IMG/VR virus record: IMGVR_UViG_2541047907_000004
Coordinates: 1-43,411 of that record
Length of the DNA stretch: 43,411 nt
DNA from: a virus
Taxonomy: Duplodnaviria; Heunggongvirae; Uroviricota; Caudoviricetes
Direction: 5' to 3' (one strand)
Position numbers and translations under genes: made by a program. Within the stretch, counting starts at the first letter, position 1; each line of letters opens with the position of its first letter. This document shows, in pieces, positions 1,009-43,411 of the stretch. The notes under the pieces were generated by a model, which did not search any database, was not told where the DNA came from, and saw only the letters and a list, made by a program, of their open reading frames with translations.

Positions 1009-1083
1009 GTCCTCTTAGTTAAATGGATATAACGAGCCCCTCCTAAGGGCTAATTGCAGGTTCGATTCCTGCAGGGGACACCA
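1009..1083 (+). tRNA. argW: tRNA-Arg (anticodon CCU), argW
   Basis: 75-nt sequence GTCCTCT...CCTGCAGGGGACACCA; acceptor stem GTCCTCT pairs with AGGGGAC; T-loop TTCGATT; anticodon loop cCTCCTAAg gives anticodon CCU; encoded 3' CCA. Confidence 0.95.
1069..1083 (+). repeat. attL core: 15-bp CTGCAGGGGACACCA, the 3' end of argW, repeated exactly at attR
   Basis: Exact 15-bp direct repeat at 1069-1083 and 41708-41722, bracketing all phage genes; integrase adjacent. Confidence 0.75.
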
Positions 1084-1244
1084 TTTATCAGTTCGCTCCC
1101 ATCCGTACCAGTCCGCAAAATCCCCTGAATATCAAGCTTTCCGTAGATTTACAGTTCGTAATGGTTCGCGTCAGATCGTTGACAGCCGCACTCCATGACG
1201 GGTAAAAAGTGGATAAAATAATTTTACCCACCGGATTTTTACCC

Positions 1245-2402
1245 ATGCTCACCGTTAAGCAGATTGAAGCAGCAAAGCCGAAAGAAAAACCATACCGCCT
1301 TCTCGATGGTAATGGCCTGTACCTTTATGTCCCTGTATCAGGGAAAAAGGTATGGCAACTTCGCTACAAGATTGACGGTAAGGAGAAAATCCTGACTGTC
1401 GGAAAATATCCGCTTATGACTTTGCAGGAAGCAAGGGATAAAGCATGGACCGCGAGGAAAGACATCTCGGTTGGCATCGATCCGGTAAAGGCGAAAAAGG
1501 CTTCGTCTAACAACAATTCATTTAGTGCGATTTACAAGGAATGGTACGAGCACAAGAAGCAAGTCTGGTCAGTAGGCTATGCAACTGAACTTGCCAAAAT
1601 GTTTGATGACGACATTTTACCCATCATCGGCGGTCTTGAGATTCAGGATATTGAGCCGATGCAACTGCTGGAAGTAATCCGCAGATTTGAAGATCGCGGT
1701 GCAATGGAGCGAGCCAACAAAGCCCGCAGAAGATGCGGCGAGGTTTTCCGTTACGCTATTGTCACCGGCAGGGCTAAATATAACCCGGCACCTGACCTTG
1801 CTGACGCCATGAAGGGGTACCGCAAGAAGAACTTCCCGTTTCTTCCTGCAGACCAGATCCCGGCATTCAATAAAGCACTAGCAACATTTTCAGGAAGTAT
1901 CGTATCGCTCATTGCCACCAAGGTTTTACGCTACACTGCCCTAAGAACGAAAGAGCTTCGTTCCATGCTATGGAAGAACGTCGATTTTGAAAACAGGATT
2001 ATCACCATCGACGCCAGTGTGATGAAAGGACGCAAAATTCATGTGGTCCCGATGTCAGACCAGGTGGTTGAACTTCTCACTACGTTAAGCTCCATCACCA
2101 AACCAGTATCAGAGTTTGTTTTTGCCGGGCGCAACGATAAGAAGAAGCCAATCTGCGAAAATGCGGTACTGCTTGTGATCAAACAAATCGGCTATGAAGG
2201 TCTGGAAAGCGGTCACGGATTCAGGCATGAATTCAGCACGATTATGAACGAGCACGAATGGCCTGCTGACGCTATTGAAGTGCAACTGGCACATGCCAAC
2301 GGCGGATCTGTGCGTGGGATTTACAACCATGCTCAGTATCTCGATAAGCGCAGAGAAATGATGCAGTGGTGGGCGGATTGGCTTGATGAAAAGGTGGAGT
2401 AA
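1245..2402 (+). CDS. intS: Tyrosine integrase, P4-like family (IntS-like)
   Basis: 385-aa protein from ATG 1245 (MLTVKQIEAAKPKEKPYRLLDGNGLYLYV...), matching my memory of K-12 IntS; the longest ORF begins at GTG 1209; C-terminal catalytic region with conserved R...HxxR...Y pattern; directly downstream of argW. Confidence 0.9.
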   Translation: MLTVKQIEAAKPKEKPYRLLDGNGLYLYVPVSGKKVWQLRYKIDGKEKILTVGKYPLMTLQEARDKAWTARKDISVGIDPVKAKKASSNNNSFSAIYKEWYEHKKQVWSVGYATELAKMFDDDILPIIGGLEIQDIEPMQLLEVIRRFEDRGAMERANKARRRCGEVFRYAIVTGRAKYNPAPDLADAMKGYRKKNFPFLPADQIPAFNKALATFSGSIVSLIATKVLRYTALRTKELRSMLWKNVDFENRIITIDASVMKGRKIHVVPMSDQVVELLTTLSSITKPVSEFVFAGRNDKKKPICENAVLLVIKQIGYEGLESGHGFRHEFSTIMNEHEWPADAIEVQLAHANGGSVRGIYNHAQYLDKRREMMQWWADWLDEKVE

Positions 2403-2432
2403 TCCACCTGAACCACTATCGGAATAACACAA

Positions 2433-2462
2433 AGCCCTGCACTCCAGTGCAAGGCTTATTTA
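2433..2462. terminator. Putative bidirectional intrinsic terminator between convergent intS and tailspike genes
   Basis: Imperfect hairpin agccctgcact/agtgcaaggct flanked by an A-run upstream and tatttatt downstream. Confidence 0.4.
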
Positions 2463-2465
2463 TTG

Positions 2466-4547
2466 TCAATTTATTGATAACATTTGCGCATTTGTCCCAA
2501 TTTTTGCAAATGTTGCAACTTTCCATGATGCGCCAGCAATGTCATTGCCTGAAATTGTAATTATATTGCCATCAGTTCCTGGTGCTTTGTTATTACCGAT
2601 AGTAGTCTTACCATCAATGTTTATTATTGTAATTTTCTGCCCTGGTGAGATGTAACGAAGTCTAGACAGCGTTGTATTCGATGCTTGGCTGATTGTTGCT
2701 TGTGATGTATGGGTTACTACAGGAGCCACACCAGTTATTGTATTAAAAGAACTTCCCGTCCCCCTAAACATTACACCAAAGTATATATTTTGTGTGCATA
2801 TAATCAATCTATCACCAACACCGGGGTATATTAATGATGGATCATACGCCATTTTATAGTTATTTGTTTCATGATATGTATTTTTTAGTAACAACACCTC
2901 AGCGCCAGATCCAGCTTTAACTCGCGGAGGTGTAGAGCAATAAAAATCAGCATATGATAGTAGGTCGAACATATAAGATGTAACTAAACTATTTGGATGT
3001 TCGATATCAACCCCACCTTCAAAGAATATGCTACCTGAACTTGTGCAAAAAGCTGTTCTTGGCTGCTGAGGTGATGAATTTATGTTTCTATATTTAAACG
3101 ATCCCATTACTGTAAGTGCCGCTTCTCCTGAAGACTGAAGACATGCTTGCTTAATTACCCCTTGCTGATTTGCAGTGATGTTTATGATGCCAAACTTGAC
3201 GTCAGTCCCAGCACCAACGCACAATATATTGTATGCACTAGGATCTTGACCAGGACCGGTGAAATTGGCATTGACATCACACACGCAGTTAACAGACCCA
3301 ACTGATCCTGTAGCACCATCTAAGAAATAAGAAATAGAAGAAAGACCAATACCGGATATACTCTCTATTCTAAAACCTGCTGTAGTATGAAGTTTTACTG
3401 GTGAGCACGCCAGAGGAGAGCCATCTACATATATTTCACCACAATAAAAACCCTTACCATGGCCATTTGTGTACAATGCATGACCTTCATGACCTTGCGA
3501 TGCAGTGATGTTTTTGTGATAAATACTACCTATGCGCTGATTATCAAATACAACTCCAAATACCCCGAAATCAACAGTATTAAAAATAGCTTTATCTATT
3601 TTCGCAGACACTCCTGTGAACCACACACCAGCAATAAACCCATAAACATCAATTGTATCTATATAGAACCCTGATACATCTCTATTTTCGTAATAATTCA
3701 TCCAAATTGACGCCCCATAAGATTTCCAGTCTCCAGATGTGACGTATGAATAACCGAGGGTGTTACTGCTTATAACAGCCGTTCTATCACCATTGTACTC
3801 AAACTTCCAGTATCCGAGCATTTTAACACGTGGCGTACGTACCTCAAATACAGGATACCCCCACAGCAATTGCTCAAAGATAGCATTATCAGAAATTAGA
3901 ACCATGTCAGGATTTGGAATTATAATCCACCCAGATATAGTGTATTTTAGATTTCCAAATTCTATTCTCTTTGCACCGCTATTTAGAGCAGCATTAATTG
4001 CTGCCATATCAGCAATGTAATCGCCAACACCAATAGAACCATGTTCTGCAAAGTCGGTAACAGATACTGTTTCTGAGTTTTTATCGTGTTGTGTACGTAG
4101 AACTGAGCCAACGAAAGGTTGCTTAACGCCAAGCATTGCATCACCTTTCGAGTCATCTTCAGCATATACTCCTGTTTGGGATAACTGCTGAAGAAGATTT
4201 GGTCCGAACTGATCAGGGTCATACTTCAGCACATTAGGAAAATAGAACTGCTGCGCACCATATGCATCATAAACAGCCATCGAATGACCTTGCACGGTTA
4301 CAAACTTGGCAATCTGTCCGTTATATACAGGATAACCAGCAGCGTTGATAACTATTGGCTGCGCCACCTGAACATGAGAGCCATCTTCTCGTTCCAGATA
4401 TACAGGGATCTGGTTTTCTGGATTTACCGGGTCAGTGTCAATTTTACCGATATAAATTTTGCCATTGGCAACCGCTTTAAAAGAACGCGCCATAGTGAAG
4501 AGTTGCGATGGCATACTCACTACAACATTGGCTGTAATGTCTGTCAT
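2466..4547 (-). CDS. Tailspike protein: P22 gp9-like N-terminal head-binding domain plus a divergent receptor-binding/enzymatic domain
   Basis: 693 aa; N-terminus [50 protein letters not shown]... closely matches remembered P22 tailspike N-terminus; the remainder is G/S/T/N-rich beta-helix-like and not P22-like. Confidence 0.85.
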
Positions 4548-4604: not shown

Positions 4605-4630
4605 TAAAAAAACCCAGCCGAAGCTGGGTC
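4605..4630 (-). terminator. Intrinsic terminator downstream of ant (minus strand)
   Basis: Hairpin cccagc-cgaa-gctggg; on the minus strand it is followed by a T-run (the A-run at 4605-4612 on the plus strand). Confidence 0.5.
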
Positions 4631-4647: not shown

Positions 4648-5571
4648 TCAGTAGTTATGTACTGAAGGAGGTAATTCTTTATTCTTAAGTCTCATCCATG
4701 CGGAAAGATTCGTTGGTCCGTCTGGCTCATTAATATCAACATCTCGTGTGTGATTGATTAAAACGTCTCTCGCCATTCCGATAACATACGAGAATTCATG
4801 ACCGTAGTCGTAGCATCTGCCGGAATAGTTCGATTGAATTTGTTTTAATGCCGGATACAGTTCGCGGAATAATGCCTGTGAGCGGTTGGCATAATCCCAT
4901 AACCATACAAGGCTGTTTGCTTCTTTTGCAGAAAGCTCGTTTGCCTTCTTCTCTTGTTTGCCGATGAACTCACCTTCAAGTGGAACTCGAGCTGCAAGTG
5001 ACAGTGCTTCTGTAAACTGCTCCTCACTGATTTCTTTGTACGAACATCCAAAATGGGATTTCAGTGACGACCACATGGTGATCATCGCCTTCGCCTGTTT
5101 TTCTTTTGGCAGAGACTGACCGCGACTCATGACGAGTTGTTTAATGGTTTCCTGCTGTTCAGTGGTGATTTTACCCGGCAACGCCTTTTTAGCTTTGCGC
5201 GGGTTAACTACATGGCCTTTAGTCCAGTATTCGTAGAGCACATCGTCACACTCTTCCTGATACTGGATTACCTTGTCGCGGATTTCAGGGCGGACTTTGT
5301 TAGGGCTGATGGTTTGCAGCCAGCCATTCAGTTTACGTAAAGCAAGGCAAATCATGGTCTGCACACCGCCAACTGAAGGTATTGCGATTTCCACAATACC
5401 TTTAGCAAATCTTTGTTTTAACTTTGTAAACTGTGAAGCCCAATCCATACCCATACCTTCAACGATAGGTTTCATTGGGGTGTACGGCTCACCGTTGTGA
5501 TTGACAACATAAAGCTCTGCGCCGTGGAATGGTACATTGATAGTAGATACTGCTGTTGCTATACTTTTCAT
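4648..5571 (-). CDS. ant: Antirepressor (Ant-like; AntA N-terminal plus KilAC-like C-terminal organisation)
   Basis: 307-aa ORF immediately downstream of arc and upstream of the tailspike, the position of P22 ant; sequence-level assignment is from gene order and general antirepressor features, not exact recall. Confidence 0.6.
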
Positions 5572-5640
5572 GTCGTTAATTCCTATGCGTGGTTTTACGA
5601 TACCGAAGCCCTGACTGTTCCAGCAGTTGGGGCTTCAACT

Positions 5641-5802
5641 TTACGCGCCAATGCGCCCTTCCTTCTTAAAGCTTTCCATTACTCTCTGATAAATCTCAGA
5701 GTTAACAGACCGACCATTCTCTTCCGCCACCTTGCGGACCAAATCCAATACTTCTTTAGGCCACCGCAAATTGAACTGCGGCATTTTGCTCATTCCTTTC
5801 AT
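5641..5802 (-). CDS. arc: Arc repressor (ribbon-helix-helix)
   Basis: 53 aa MKGMSKMPQFNLRWPKEVLDLVRKVAEENGRSVNSEIYQRVMESFKKEGRIGA, essentially the remembered P22 Arc sequence; the ORF-track ORF extends upstream but the Arc start is ATG at 5802. Confidence 0.9.
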   Translation of the reverse strand: MKGMSKMPQFNLRWPKEVLDLVRKVAEENGRSVNSEIYQRVMESFKKEGRIGA

Positions 5803-5818
5803 ATTCACCTCACAATAT

Positions 5819-5865
5819 GGGTCCACCGTGGACCTATTGAGAATATAGTAGAGTGCTTCTATCAT
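5819..5865. promoter_or_regulatory. immI control region: Mnt operator palindrome (gggtccaccgtggacct, 5819-5835) and Arc operator (atagtagagtgcttctatcat, 5845-5865) between divergent arc and mnt
   Basis: Perfect inverted repeat GGTCCACCGTGGACC and the 21-bp ATAGTAGAGTGCTTCTATCAT motif, both matching remembered P22 Omnt and Oarc. Confidence 0.75.
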
Positions 5866-5892: not shown

Positions 5893-6147
5893 ATGGCTAG
5901 AGATGATCCGCACTTTAACTTCCGTATGCCTATGGAAGTAAGGGAGAAATTAAAATTCAGGGCGGAGGCGAATGGGAGATCAATGAACTCCGAGTTGTTA
6001 CAAATCGTCCAAGATGCTCTATCAAAACCATCGCCTGTGACTGGCTATCGCGACGAAGCTGAACGCTTGGCTGATCAGCAGGCAGAGCAGTTCAAGACTG
6101 TTGTGTTTGAGACACTTAAAAAGATTTATGGCAAGGATGATAAATAA
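5893..6147 (+). CDS. mnt: Mnt repressor (maintenance of lysogeny; ribbon-helix-helix)
   Basis: 84 aa MARDDPHFNFRMPMEVREKLKFRAEANGRSMNSELLQIVQDALSKPSPVTGY..., matching remembered P22 Mnt; divergent from arc. Confidence 0.9.
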   Translation: MARDDPHFNFRMPMEVREKLKFRAEANGRSMNSELLQIVQDALSKPSPVTGYRDEAERLADQQAEQFKTVVFETLKKIYGKDDK

Positions 6148-6683
6148 TGCTGCACACAATTCATTTCTTATGCCCCGTTAACACCGCCACTGTTGGGCAA
6201 CTTCAGAACCACTGTCTCACCGCATTATCTCAAGGCGCAACTGAATTAAATATCCATATATCAAGTCAGGGAGGGGAAACTGCCGCTGGTTTTACTGCGT
6301 ATAACTTTCTTAAGTCACTCCCTGTTGCCGTTAGAACTCACAACATAAGCAATGTTGAATCCATAGCTAATATCGTTTTCCTGGCTGGCTCAGAACGTTT
6401 CGCAAACCCATTATCAAGATTCCTGTTACATCCTCTATTATGGGGCTTTGCCACCCCAGCCGCCGACCATGCCAGATTGAGAGAGTACGGGAAATGCCTC
6501 GATAACGATCTTGATCGCTTCGTTGAGACGTTCAATATCGACATCGGAACCCATATTAGGTGGGCATCCCTGATAGCAGACTCGACCATTTTGGATGCTA
6601 ACAAGGCTCTTGAGCATGGCATAATTAATTCCATAAAAACTGCAAGGCTGGTATCCAATCAGGCAAACTGGTGGGTTGTTTGA
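6147..6683 (+). CDS. ClpP-like (S14 family) serine peptidase-fold protein, translationally coupled to mnt
   Basis: 178 aa; ATG overlaps the mnt stop (TAATG); blocks HISSQGG, ISNVESIANIVFLAG and SRFLLHPLLWG align with ClpP YINSPGG, GQAASMGAFLLTAG and SRVMIHQPLGG (from memory), with Ser and His at triad positions. Confidence 0.6.
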   Translation: MLHTIHFLCPVNTATVGQLQNHCLTALSQGATELNIHISSQGGETAAGFTAYNFLKSLPVAVRTHNISNVESIANIVFLAGSERFANPLSRFLLHPLLWGFATPAADHARLREYGKCLDNDLDRFVETFNIDIGTHIRWASLIADSTILDANKALEHGIINSIKTARLVSNQANWWVV

Positions 6684-6760
6684 TGGGTAAATCATGATTA
6701 CTCCTATGGCCGGAAAGATTCGCATCCTTAAATTTAGTGAGCAAGGATTACCATCACACC

Positions 6761-6946
6761 TCAACAGCTTCCGCGTCCCTGAGTAATTCTGTCGCGGATT
6801 TGCTTCTTACGGTGGTTTAAGCTGGAGAGCTTGGCTTCTGCTTCTGATATTTGCGCATCAAGATCTTTAAGCTCAAGATCTGAAAGTCGCTGGTCAAGCA
6901 GGGTTTGGTTCAACTCAATGTTGTTCAGGCGTTCTTCTATGGTCAT
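6761..6946 (-). CDS. Small coiled-coil protein (61 aa), unknown function
   Basis: ATG preceded by AGGAG RBS; sequence MTIEERLNNIELNQTLLDQRLSDLELKDLDAQISEAEAKL... has heptad-like repeats; convergent with the ClpP-like gene. Confidence 0.4.
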   Translation of the reverse strand: MTIEERLNNIELNQTLLDQRLSDLELKDLDAQISEAEAKLSSLNHRKKQIRDRITQGRGSC

Positions 6947-7087
6947 GATTTCTCCTTGTTGAGGTTGATGTGAAACGATTGATTGTATACGCACTCTTTT
7001 GTTAGCTAGTAGCTTTGCTTAATCGCAAGATAAAGTTTCTGATTAATCCCTAAAAATCAAAAAATAAAGTTAAAACAGGTACATGAT

Positions 7088-7291
7088 ATGGAATGGATCA
7101 TAGGATTTGTTGTTCTTATCTTCATAGCCAGTATGTTTAAACCAAGAAGTTGCGATATCTGTGGTGCTGGATTTAAGAAAAAGTACTTCACATGGACTAT
7201 CGATGGAAAGAAACAGCATCTTTGTCCGTACTGCAACAGTAAAATGGAGAGACGCAACAGCGATAGACGCTTTAAGGATCGATTTGGTTAA
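7088..7291 (+). CDS. Small membrane-anchored zinc-ribbon protein (67 aa), unknown function
   Basis: N-terminal hydrophobic segment IIGFVVLIFIASMF followed by CxxC...CxxC (CDICGAG...CPYCNS); followed by a strong terminator. Confidence 0.45.
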   Translation: MEWIIGFVVLIFIASMFKPRSCDICGAGFKKKYFTWTIDGKKQHLCPYCNSKMERRNSDRRFKDRFG

Positions 7292-7306
7292 CCATTTTAT
7301 CTCCAA

Positions 7307-7337
7307 CAAAAAAACCCACCTGACGGTGGGTTTTATT
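7307..7337. terminator. Bidirectional intrinsic terminator (acccacc-tgac-ggtgggt, A-run upstream, T-run downstream)
   Basis: Perfect 7-bp stem, 4-nt loop, flanked by aaaaaaaa and ttttatt; serves convergent genes 7088-7291 (+) and 7336-7755 (-). Confidence 0.7.
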
Positions 7338-7755
7338 AGTGCTTGTATAGGTTGAACTCTCTATCAAGCCATATAACAAAAAATGTCGATCCAAGACGAT
7401 AACCAACCATGGCTTTCAAATCATCAAATCTAAAAGCCAAGAAATGATCTACGTCTTCCGTTATATGACCGGGGATACCAGCTTTAATTGCACCCCTTGC
7501 AATCTTCTCAAATCCAAGCTTATGCCTACCTTGCTGCTTAATCTCTGCCCATGTTAGTTGACTTAATCTGTATAATTTATCAGCTAAGCCAGCTTTCTCA
7601 TCTTTTTGGCATTTCGTTATGCAGTGAGAGCTTTGGATGTAACAGAATGAAAATTTCGGTTTCTTTTGATCTGAATTCCCCCCTGACTGCGGCCCTAACT
7701 TTAACTTACCTGTAGATTCAGCAGGGGGGATAATCCTTTTAGATTTTCTTGCCAT
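7336..7755 (-). CDS. Unknown 139-aa protein downstream of and coupled to the DUF4065 gene; candidate toxin/effector
   Basis: ATG at 7755 lies 4 nt after the upstream gene's stop; basic N-terminus, C-x6-C-x3-C cluster, beta-rich C-terminus ending ...GYRLGSTFFVIWLDREFNLYKH; the ORF also has an upstream in-frame start at 7830 overlapping the neighbour. Confidence 0.45.
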   Translation of the reverse strand: MARKSKRIIPPAESTGKLKLGPQSGGNSDQKKPKFSFCYIQSSHCITKCQKDEKAGLADKLYRLSQLTWAEIKQQGRHKLGFEKIARGAIKAGIPGHITEDVDHFLAFRFDDLKAMVGYRLGSTFFVIWLDREFNLYKH

Positions 7756-7759
7756 CTCG

Positions 7760-8209
7760 TTAGTTAATCCGAGTTGCAAAGTACTCTGCCATCTCCTTAG
7801 AGCTAATTTCAGAACCACCAACACCCTCAATATAGTTTGATCTCCATGGTGACTCTTCGTGTGTCATGTTCCTCAGTTTCCAGGCAGAAAATTGCCCAAA
7901 AACATCCCAGACTTCTTCTAATAGCTCTAACTGTTCTTCGCTGAATTTTTCAGCATCAAAAGACTCTGGAGAAGGGATAGCTCCATTACCATATTGTTTA
8001 TAACGGCGATAAAGCTCAGGGACAACAGGGCCATGCATCCAAGCTTCCATCTTATTCTGAAAAAGAGGCTCACCAAGCAACGCCAATGAAAACCCCTGAG
8101 CATAGTAAACAAGCTTTTGTAATTTTAAATTAGAGATTGTGTCACCGCTATCCTCGTCACACCGCGACAGGAAGTAGTCGGCGACATCAAAACAAGTAAG
8201 CATGAACAC
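7760..8209 (-). CDS. DUF4065 / Panacea-domain protein (GepA/SocA-like), candidate antitoxin
   Basis: 149 aa; GGAGG RBS 5 nt upstream of ATG; motif block NLKLQKLVYYAQGFSLALLGEPLFQNKMEAWMHGPVVPELYRRYKQYG matches my recollection of the DUF4065 family signature. Confidence 0.65.
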   Translation of the reverse strand: MFMLTCFDVADYFLSRCDEDSGDTISNLKLQKLVYYAQGFSLALLGEPLFQNKMEAWMHGPVVPELYRRYKQYGNGAIPSPESFDAEKFSEEQLELLEEVWDVFGQFSAWKLRNMTHEESPWRSNYIEGVGGSEISSKEMAEYFATRIN

Positions 8210-26744: not shown

Positions 26745-27071
26745 ATGACTAAAAATACTCGTTTTTCCCCCGAAGTCCGTCAACGGGCAGTCCGTATGGT
26801 TCTGGAAAGTCAGAGCGAATATGACTCACAATGGGCGACAATTTGTTCCATTGCTCCAAAGATTGGCTGTACGCCGGAGACTCTGCGTGTCTGGGTTCGC
26901 CAGCATGAGCGGGATACCGGGGGCGGTGATGGAGGGCTCACCACCGCTGAACGTCAGCGTCTGAAAGAGCTGGAACGTGAAAATCGTGAACTGCGCCGCA
27001 GTAACGATATCCTTCGCCAGGCTTCCGCTTATTTTGCGAAGGCGGAGTTCGACCGCCTCTGGAAAAAATGA
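26745..27071 (+). CDS. IS3-family transposase OrfA (HTH DNA-binding)
   Basis: 108 aa [22 protein letters not shown]... with a leucine-zipper-like C-terminus. Confidence 0.9.
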
Positions 27072-27958
27072 TGCCACTGCTGGATAAGCTGCGTGAGCAG
27101 TACGGGGTCGGACCGCTATGCAGCGAACTGCATATTGCCCCGTCAACGTATTACCACTGTCAGCAACAGCGACATCATCCGGATAAACGCAGTGCCCGTG
27201 CGCAGCGCGATGACTGGCTGAAGAAAGAGATACAGCGCGTATACGATGAAAATCACAAGGTATACGGTGTGCGTAAAGTCTGGCGTCAGTTGTTACGGGA
27301 AGGTATCAGAGTGGCCAGATGCACTGTGGCACGTCTCATGGCGGTTATGGGACTTGCCGGTGTTCTCCGGGGTAAAAAGGTCCGTACGACCATCAGCCGG
27401 AAAGCCGTTGCCGCAGGCGACCGCGTAAACCGTCAGTTCGTGGCAGAACGACCTGACCAGCTGTGGGTGGCTGATTTTACTTACGTCAGCACATGGCGGG
27501 GCTTCGTCTATGTGGCGTTCATCATTGATGTGTTTGCCGGATACATCGTGGGGTGGCGGGTCTCATCGTCCATGGAAACGACATTCGTGCTGGATGCACT
27601 GGAGCAGGCGTTATGGGCCCGTCGACCGTCCGGCACGGTCCATCACAGTGATAAAGGTTCTCAGTATGTATCGCTGGCCTACACACAGCGGCTTAAGGAA
27701 GCCGGATTACTGGCATCAACAGGAAGTACAGGCGACTCGTATGACAACGCGATGGCGGAGAGCATCAATGGTCTTTACAAAGCGGAGGTAATACACCGTA
27801 AGAGCTGGAAAAACCGTGCAGAAGTGGAACTGGCCACACTCACGTGGGTGGACTGGTATAACAATCGACGATTGCTGGAAAGGCTGGGCCATACTCCTCC
27901 GGCAGAAGCAGAAAAAGCTTATTATGCTTCCATCGGAAACGATGATCTGGCAGCCTGA
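27068..27958 (+). CDS. IS3-family transposase OrfB (DDE catalytic domain)
   Basis: 296 aa; overlaps OrfA in the -1 frame across an A6 run (27063-27068), consistent with programmed frameshifting to an OrfAB fusion. Confidence 0.9.
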
Positions 27959-41390: not shown

Positions 41391-41398
41391 TGCCTGAT

Positions 41399-41414
41399 TT
41401 GCAGGTTCGATTCC
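41399..41414 (+). repeat. 16-bp copy of the argW T-arm segment (TTGCAGGTTCGATTCC), inside the prophage upstream of torI
   Basis: Exact match to tRNA positions 1054-1069, the segment immediately 5' of the att core in the tRNA; here separated from the attR core by 293 bp. Confidence 0.6.
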
Positions 41415-41433
41415 CTATTCGGAGATAGCACTC

Positions 41434-41634
41434 ATGCAACACGAACTACAGCCTGATTCCCTGGTTGATTTGAAATTCATCATGGCCGATACTGGCTTTG
41501 GTAAAACCTTCATCTACGACCGGATTAAGTCCGGCGACCTGCCAAAAGCCAAAGTTATCCACGGTCGAGCAAGATGGTTATATCGTGACCATTGTGAATT
41601 CAAAAATAAACTCTTAAGCCGCGCCAATGGGTAA
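41434..41634 (+). CDS. torI: Excisionase / recombination directionality factor TorI (AlpA-family winged helix)
   Basis: 66 aa MQHELQPDSLVDLKFIMADTGFGKTFIYDRIKSGDLPKAKVIHGRARWLYRDHCEFKNKLLSRANG, matching remembered K-12 TorI; located next to attR. Confidence 0.85.
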   Translation: MQHELQPDSLVDLKFIMADTGFGKTFIYDRIKSGDLPKAKVIHGRARWLYRDHCEFKNKLLSRANG

Positions 41635-41707
41635 AATAGCGGGTAAAATATTTCTCACATCTAAAAAACACCATTCCAGTCAATCCCCTGCCGCTTCAAG
41701 TAGATGT

Positions 41708-41722
41708 CTGCAGGGGACACCA
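41708..41722 (+). repeat. attR core (CTGCAGGGGACACCA)
   Basis: Exact 15-bp repeat of the tRNA 3' end including CCA. Confidence 0.75.
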
Positions 41723-42163
41723 GATACCCTTCAAACGAAATCTACCTTCACCCCGTAAAAGATGGGTTTGGCAGCACACTTGCCTTATATCTACTCATTT
41801 TTACTGCAACAGGTTGAAATCTCAGCACTGTCAGAAAGCGCTGATGACTAAACAGCCCTGAGCCGGGCGATGTAACCATCACACAGAATCCTGATAGCGA
41901 AATATGGCGTGACTCGATACTTCACTCCGCAATGCATTCCTTGATGAATTCGCAGGACCGTGATACACGGGACAGGTCACTGAATGACGACAATGTCCTG
42001 GAAATCAGCGAACCGCGCATCTGAAGTACATTTGAGCGACTGTACCAGAACATGAATGAGGCGTTTGGATTAGGCGATTATTAGCAGGGCTAAGCATTTT
42101 ACTATTATTATTTTCCGGTTGAGGGATATAGAGCTATCGACAACAACCGGAAAAAGTTTACGT

Positions 42164-43411
42164 CTATATTGCTGAAGGTACAGGCGTTTCCATAACTATT
42201 TGCTCGCGTTTTTTACTCAAGAAGAAAATGCCAAATAGCAACATCAGGCAGACAATACCCGAAATTGCGAAGAAAACTGTCTGGTAGCCTGCGTGGTCAA
42301 AGAGTATCCCAGTCGGCGTTGAAAGCAGCACAATCCCAAGCGAACTGGCAATTTGAAAACCAATCAGAAAGATCGTCGACGACAGGCGCTTATCAAAGTT
42401 TGCCACGCTGTATTTGAAGACGGATATGACACAAAGTGGAACCTCAATGGCATGTAACAACTTCACTAATGAAATAATCCAGGGGTTAACGAACAGCGCG
42501 CAGGAAAGGATACGCAACGCCATAATCACAACTCCGATAAGTAATGCATTTTTTGGCCCTACCCGATTCACAAAGAAAGGAATAATCGCCATGCACAGCG
42601 CTTCGAGTACCACCTGGAATGAGTTGAGATAACCATACAGGCGCGTTCCTACATCGTGTGATTCGAATAAACCTGCATAAAAGACAGGAAAAAGTTGTTG
42701 ATCAAAAATGTTATAGAAAGACCACGTCCCCACAATAAATATGACGAAAACCCAGAAGTTTCGATCCTTGAAAACTGCGATAAAATCCTCTTTTTTTACC
42801 CCTCCCGCATCTGCCGCTACGCACTGGTGATCCTTATCTTTAAAACGCATGTTGATCATCATAAATACAGCGCCAAATAGCGAGACCAACCAGAAGTTGA
42901 TATGGGGACTGATACTAAAAAATATGCCGGCAAAGAACGCGCCAATAGCATAGCCAAAAGATCCCCAGGCGCGCGCTGTTCCATATTCGAAATGAAAATT
43001 TCGCGCCATTTTTTCGGTGAAGCTATCAAGCAAACCGCATCCCGCCAGATACCCCAAGCCAAAAAATAGCGCCCCCAGAATTAGACCTACAGAAAAATTG
43101 CTTTGCAGTAACGGTTCATAAACGTAAATCATAAACGGTCCGGTCAAGACCAGGATGAAACTCATACACCAGATGAGCGGTTTCTTCAGACCGAGTTTAT
43201 CCTGAACGATGCCGTAGAACATCATAAATAGAATGCTGGTAAACTGGTTGACCGAATAAAGTGTACCTAATTCCGTCCCTGTCAACCCTAGATGTCCTTT
43301 CAGCCAAATAGCGTATAACGACCACCACAGCGACCAGGAAATAAAAAAGAGAAATGAGTAACTGGATGCAAAACGATAGTACGCATTTCTGAATGGAATA
43401 TTCAGTGCCAT
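42164..43411 (-). CDS. cscB: Sucrose:H+ symporter CscB (MFS, LacY-like oligosaccharide symporter family)
   Basis: Complete 415-aa ORF whose start codon is the last three bases of the window; 12-TM hydrophobic profile; MALNIPFRNAYYRFASSYSFLFFISWSLWWSLYAIWLKG... matches remembered CscB. Confidence 0.85.
   Translation of the reverse strand: MALNIPFRNAYYRFASSYSFLFFISWSLWWSLYAIWLKGHLGLTGTELGTLYSVNQFTSILFMMFYGIVQDKLGLKKPLIWCMSFILVLTGPFMIYVYEPLLQSNFSVGLILGALFFGLGYLAGCGLLDSFTEKMARNFHFEYGTARAWGSFGYAIGAFFAGIFFSISPHINFWLVSLFGAVFMMINMRFKDKDHQCVAADAGGVKKEDFIAVFKDRNFWVFVIFIVGTWSFYNIFDQQLFPVFYAGLFESHDVGTRLYGYLNSFQVVLEALCMAIIPFFVNRVGPKNALLIGVVIMALRILSCALFVNPWIISLVKLLHAIEVPLCVISVFKYSVANFDKRLSSTIFLIGFQIASSLGIVLLSTPTGILFDHAGYQTVFFAISGIVCLMLLFGIFFLSKKREQIVMETPVPSAI

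Follow-up and report, generated by a model that had tools for sequence, protein, structure and literature searches.

The DNA analyzed here, referred to as the window, is a stretch of 43,411 nucleotides (nt) from a tailed phage (Caudoviricetes; IMG/VR record IMGVR_UViG_2541047907_000004), and the subject of this report is its tailspike gene. This gene occupies positions 2466..4547 on the minus strand as a complete coding sequence of 693 amino acids (aa) plus stop codon in the list of open reading frames (ORFs), exactly matching the deposited protein WP_021562326.1, and a GGAG sequence lies at 4559-4556, 9 nt 5' of its ATG. Three parts can be distinguished along the protein, all encoded on the minus strand: a P22-type head-binding domain serving as virion anchor (aa 1-113; 4209..4547), a linker with an N-terminal cap motif (aa 114-165; 4053..4208), and a receptor-binding domain from a rare family (aa 166-693; 2469..4052), predicted to form a right-handed parallel beta-helix and a beta-rich C-terminal part.

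The anchor matches the Pfam family PF09008 (Head_binding) over the full profile length (E 7.6e-66; 219.9 bits against a cut-off of 24), the only Pfam family found in the protein. This domain is common to P22, Sf6, HK620, and CUS-3, and all 202 matches in phage records end by aa 229, bearing out an initial annotation from sequence that had proposed a chimeric tailspike with a P22-type anchor and a different receptor domain. Protein Data Bank (PDB) chains of the P22 endorhamnosidase gp9 (2xc1, 1lkt) align to aa 2-115 only (E ~1e-52; 86 of 114 residues identical, 75%), and the alignments of the full-length P22 chains 2xc1 and 8tvr are likewise confined to the N-terminus. The remainder is unrelated in sequence to the P22 enzyme, as had been supposed, and would have only the general beta-helix fold class in common with it according to the predicted structure. 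The Sf6 endorhamnosidase gp14 (623 aa; PDB 7sg7, 2vbk, 4urr) shares with the window spike the plan of head-binding domain, linker/cap, and beta-helix, and aligns to aa 1-192 with an identity of 90% over aa 1-115, 61% over aa 116-166, and 25% beyond, but with no sequence similarity past ~aa 190. The anchor is 88% identical to that of the CUS-3 endosialidase spike and 70% identical to that of the HK620 endo-N-acetylglucosaminidase spike, tblastn covering aa 1-125 and aa 1-166 only, and nucleotide matches to HK620 and other phages (megablast) start near window position 4206. No homology between the receptor domain and the P22, Sf6, HK620, or CUS-3 enzymes was found, the P22 alignment reaching aa 115 and that of Sf6 aa 192. 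Judged by these identities, the anchor is of the Sf6/E. coli type: the first ~110 residues are P22-type, as first described, but the description as near-identical to P22 overstates a 75% identity.

The crystal chains of Sf6 deltaN (4urr, 2vbe) align with aa 110-192, placing the linker and cap at the start of the crystallized Sf6 beta-helix fragment, and the cap motif is kept behind epsilon15-like, TSP1/gp66-type, and other N-termini (alignment A1). Since the linker/cap segment is shared with Sf6 and with homologs carrying other anchors, it is a likely recombination joint. The position of the junction depends on the comparison. Relative to P22 it lies at ~aa 115, close to the ~aa 110 given initially, whereas in the nearest relatives the shared part extends to ~aa 165.

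A rare receptor-binding domain with a conserved His-Tyr motif

The residues G, S, T, N, and Y together make up 39.6% of aa 166-693 compared with 28.7% of aa 1-115, confirming the G/S/T/N/Y-rich character noted at the outset, and the G+C content drops to 0.37-0.41 across the 3' three quarters of the gene compared with 0.465 for the window. The fold of aa 166-693, modeled as a monomer, is predicted to be a right-handed beta-helix as in phage depolymerases, in line with the earlier guess. PDB entries for beta-helix depolymerases and lyases (K64-1 S2-4, the coliphage K5A lyase KflA, phi29 gp12, AlgE4, GH87) show sequence identities of 9-13%.

Relatives of the receptor domain are scarce. Neither the single sequence nor a family profile matched any PDB entry, none of the 50,697 INPHARED phage records carries the domain (aa 196-693; tblastn, E ≤ 1), neither megablast nor blastn recovered it from 5,426 complete E. 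coli genomes, the GTDB species representatives gave no match, and in IMG/VR the sole matches were three weak ones to the cap region. Among 5.8 billion clusters, 17 were related over most of the domain, at 41-99% identity, and of the 56 proteins that an exhaustive profile search returned from 1.84 billion representatives, only 10 scored below 1e-30. The query itself matches none of the Pfam beta-helix families (e.g., PF12708, Pect-lyase_RHGA_epim); the distant homologs P0029 and P0034 match PF12708 above the cut-off, only over the ~55-residue N-terminal cap. On the basis of these searches, the receptor domain belongs to a rare, uncharacterized family with no characterized or structurally solved relative. 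The protein family phrog_8280, "tail spike protein with colanic acid degradation activity", scores 623 bits over the whole length, but its label is not transferable because the similarity to the labeled phage, SEN22, is confined to aa 1-118 and the receptor domain is absent from the phage records searched.

The most conserved family motif spans aa 344-359 (3471..3518, minus strand) and is apparent from the translation and from the columns of alignments A4, A1, and A3. In A4, which extends to homologs of 19-36% identity and in which residue numbers are offset by a trim of 159 positions, H356 and Y359 remain invariant, including in homologs of just 19-25% identity, and P232, D326, and G328 are conserved at a level of at least 90%. 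Among the close relatives many residues do not vary at all (A1, A3). The five positions conserved in A4 lie in the motifs EQxxWGYPxFE (aa 225-235), DTVDFG (aa 323-328), and KNITxSQGxxxHAxY (aa 345-359); Q226 and Q351 are, by inspection, also kept in most alignment rows. The aa 344-359 motif together with D326 and the EQxxWGYPxFE segment is a candidate active or binding site, as suggested by residue conservation. In the predicted secondary structure these motifs fall on strands and turns of adjacent coils, a placement that would be expected of an active-site or binding groove along the helix.

Beta-helix glycosidases, whether inverting or retaining, usually rely on a pair of carboxylates. A single widely conserved acidic residue is compatible with a hydrolase, with a lyase, and with a domain that only binds. 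It is possible, though somewhat doubtful, that the domain is not a glycoside hydrolase but epimerase-like, or a polysaccharide lyase that acts on a uronic acid by beta-elimination.

Exchange of the receptor domain and linkage to acyltransferase genes

Homologs carry the receptor domain behind several anchors, including the P22 head-binding domain, epsilon15-like N-termini, the TSP1/gp66 N-domain (PF18668), and the T7-fiber N-domain (PF03906), and are found in P22-like, siphovirus-like, epsilon15-like, and T7-like phages as well as in one further phage backbone carrying DNA polymerase A and SNF2-family genes. A second breakpoint emerges from the comparison with the homolog P0006, to which the window spike is ~98-100% identical at the protein level up to ~aa 250 and ~50% identical thereafter; at the nucleotide level, window 2466-4547 and L005:3934-5019 share 86% identity over the first 1.07 kb. 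This drop indicates recombination inside the beta-helix in addition to the anchor joint. Pas et al. 2023 (PMC10408124) describe the swapping of tailspike modules among Lederberg-, Uetake-, Kutter-, and other phage genera, and the pattern reported there matches the present family in combining one receptor domain with several anchor types through conserved joints.

In every temperate homolog locus examined outside the clade of the window, a convergent gene lies directly 3' of the spike. It encodes an acyltransferase-3 (AT3) protein in L001, L002, L003, L005, L006, L007, L011, and L012, and in L013 (6344-7321, minus strand) a 325-aa ORF with a sub-threshold match to the AT3-associated SGNH domain (E 0.012). 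Beside the spike/AT3 cassette of L005, a 341-aa ORF (L005:7122-8147, minus strand) matches DUF4886 weakly. SGNH domains are normally fused to AT3 acetyltransferases, and both ORFs may be split-off partner domains of such enzymes. Two AT3 types can be separated, with no blastp similarity to each other: a 337-aa type, whose copies in a P22-like and an epsilon15-like prophage are 94% identical, and a 341-aa type, 84% identical between P22-like and siphovirus-like prophages. One subclade of the receptor domain goes with each type, and the subclade of the window has neither. The homology between backbones forms a single colinear block of ~2.6 kb reaching from spike aa ~172-178 to the end of the AT3 gene, with 81% nucleotide identity between P22-like and epsilon15-like elements (L001:10534-13121 and L007:6795-9382) and 76% between P22-like and siphovirus-like elements (L005:4463-7057 and L002:8518-11114). 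One such block across unrelated backbones shows that receptor domain and acyltransferase move as one cassette in the temperate relatives.

The AT3 gene is missing from two lytic-phage loci and from L004, and tblastn detected no acyltransferase anywhere in the window. Sf6 carries the AT3 gene oac near its spike, and in the Sf6 arrangement of tailspike, oac, and int the prophage acetylates the O-antigen recognized by its own spike. The AT3 linkage in relatives of the receptor domain resembles this arrangement, unlike the window prophage, which is without oac, and by analogy the cassette fits the Sf6 paradigm. In the temperate relatives the acyltransferase would presumably acetylate the polysaccharide bound by the spike, so that, as is the case for Sf6 Oac, the host is converted by lysogeny and superinfection is excluded.

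Prophage setting and deposited copies

The element harboring the tailspike gene is a P22/Sf6/HK620-like temperate podovirus prophage at argW of E. coli, with the tailspike as its last late gene. Its left flank is E. coli yfdC-argW, the tRNA-Arg (CCT) gene argW (1009..1083, plus strand; ARAGORN) being the integration site, followed by an IntS-type prophage integrase gene (1209..2402, plus strand), and both assignments agree with the yfdC/tRNA-Arg/intS annotation of matching E. coli genomes. Integrase and tailspike genes are convergent and 63 bp apart, and no O-antigen-modification gene lies in the gap, which contains a GC-rich hairpin (2432..2457) that a consensus scan identified as terminator-like on both strands, at 2457-2432 (11 pairs) on the minus and at 2438-2451 on the plus strand. 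Upstream of the tailspike are the genes for the P22 antirepressor Ant (P22_AR) and for Arc- and Mnt-like proteins (4648-5865), and the same scan placed a second terminator-like hairpin (4611..4630, minus strand) 3' of the antirepressor gene and upstream of the tailspike start. Compared with those of HK620 (96%), Sf6, and related coliphages, the virion genes show a nucleotide identity of 96-97%. The tailspike gene thus closes the late and immI region of a P22-like genome and adjoins int/att, a position shared with Sf6 gp14.

At the opposite end, the likely attR is marked at 41399, within window 41394-41415, by 16 nt that repeat the tRNA-Arg core (TTGCAGGTTCGATTCC). Beyond it the remaining 3' end of the tRNA is missing and a small ORF (MQHELQPDSLVDLKFIMADTGFGKTFIYD...) begins instead, which by eye may be AlpA-like. 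The right end of the window (41435-43411) further contains a gene for a LacY-family permease (42164-43411, minus strand); together, the small ORF and the permease gene suggest remnants of another element at the same site. Window 6147-8209, which separates the immI region from the ejection-protein genes, carries accessory genes that also occur in L004, namely a Clp-protease-like ORF (6147-6683, plus strand), an ORF with a SocA/Panacea antitoxin domain (7760-8209, minus strand), and a 164-aa ORF (7336-7830, minus strand) that overlaps the latter by 71 nt and weakly matches NsnC in PADLOC; this region may be a toxin-antitoxin or defense moron.

The exact protein was already deposited from E. coli UMEA 3176-1 (EQX56448.1/WP_021562326.1), under the names "bifunctional tail protein" and "phage head-binding domain-containing protein". 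This entry is uncharacterized, and none of the characterized tailspikes is identical to the protein. The 90% cluster of WP_021562326.1 has 13 members, of which one, 99% identical, comes from an isolate named E. coli O20:H45, and related clusters derive from E. coli, E. fergusonii, and Enterobacter. A literature search by protein accession returned no paper mentioning the tailspike protein, and the papers that mention UMEA 3176-1 state no serotype. Another copy of 99% identity, in L004, is located at a different chromosomal site, beside ybhB-bioA (ybhB-bioABFCD) and not at argW. In that locus the 147 bp 3' of the spike (L004:8083-8229) are homologous to window 2465-2319, i.e., to the spike-int spacer and the 3' end of int, and the arrangement looks like a truncated or rearranged prophage end.

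An IS3-family-like insertion sequence, comprising a 108-aa ORF and a 296-aa rve/HTH_21 transposase, lies within the prophage at window 26745-27958 (plus strand), so the prophage may be defective. The receptor domain could then be a functionless relic, or else bind its receptor only, and the searches of Pfam and of PDB profiles, which found no enzymatic motif of a known family, agree with either. We nevertheless regard both as highly improbable: the ORF is intact and 99% conserved across 13 deposited sequences, with prophages at two chromosomal sites (argW, and ybhB-bioA in L004), polar residues are strongly conserved despite wide divergence, and the occurrence of the domain in T7-like lytic phages and in others speaks for a functional module.

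Substrate and host range

We consider it likely that the gene encodes the tailspike of an Sf6/HK620-type prophage with an acquired beta-helix receptor domain, which most probably depolymerizes an uncommon O-antigen and sets the host range. In such a spike, the head-binding domain would dock a presumably trimeric protein on the tail hub, and the linker/cap would connect this anchor to the horizontally acquired receptor domain, a module passed between unrelated phage backbones. The receptor domain would recognize, and most probably depolymerize, a host surface polysaccharide, most likely a particular, uncommon O-antigen, and host range would be set accordingly. The absence of any characterized relative, together with the great rarity of the domain in public data, points to a specificity that is probably for an uncommon surface polysaccharide. 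A target of another kind, such as the capsule (K antigen), colanic acid, or another exopolysaccharide, has a precedent in the endosialidase spike of the P22-like phage CUS-3. We judge such a target unlikely; the linkage of the domain in temperate relatives to acyltransferase genes of the Sf6 Oac type is what would be anticipated for an O-antigen.

Several points weigh against an O-antigen depolymerase. The acyltransferase gene is missing from the prophage of the window itself, and the assignment to an O-antigen is made by analogy and from one strain label (O20:H45). Sequence comparison provides no apparent link between the receptor domain and any characterized enzyme, and the family members are all biochemically uncharacterized. 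D326 is the only acidic residue conserved across distant homologs. Lastly, a prophage with an IS-type transposase in it may be defective.

The strain label O20:H45 is a lead and not evidence of specificity. The O20 antigen has a two-residue backbone with Ribf and without GlcNAc or GalNAc, and its gene cluster is unlocated (PMC7685785); the receptor-binding protein subtypes defined in the abstract of PMC10408124 cover 14 named serogroups, which do not include O20. A more far-reaching proposal is that aa 166-693 found a mechanistically distinct family of beta-helix depolymerases, built on an invariant His-Tyr pair and one Asp and not on paired carboxylates, specific for O20 or a related antigen, whose subclades have co-diverged with two unrelated, co-transferred acyltransferases across podo-, sipho-, and epsilon15-type prophages. 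This proposal is speculative and, in our estimate, quite improbable.

Tailspike receptor domains determine the serotypes open to infection by a phage and find use as typing reagents and depolymerases. The architecture of the present spike and the evolutionary mechanism behind it are already well known, and the gain in this respect is incremental. What goes beyond the ordinary is the rarity of the domain, the conserved site centered on His and Tyr, the cassette linkage with two AT3 types, and the tentative connection to O20. The relatives make it clear that exchange can involve a receptor domain jointly with an acyltransferase of the O-antigen type, in a single cassette, and the one strain label points to O20, the biosynthetic locus of which is still unlocated (PMC7685785). 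If the more far-reaching proposal were true, the cassette would be a self-contained unit that recognizes and then masks the receptor, and the spike would be a probe for an O-antigen of unresolved genetics.
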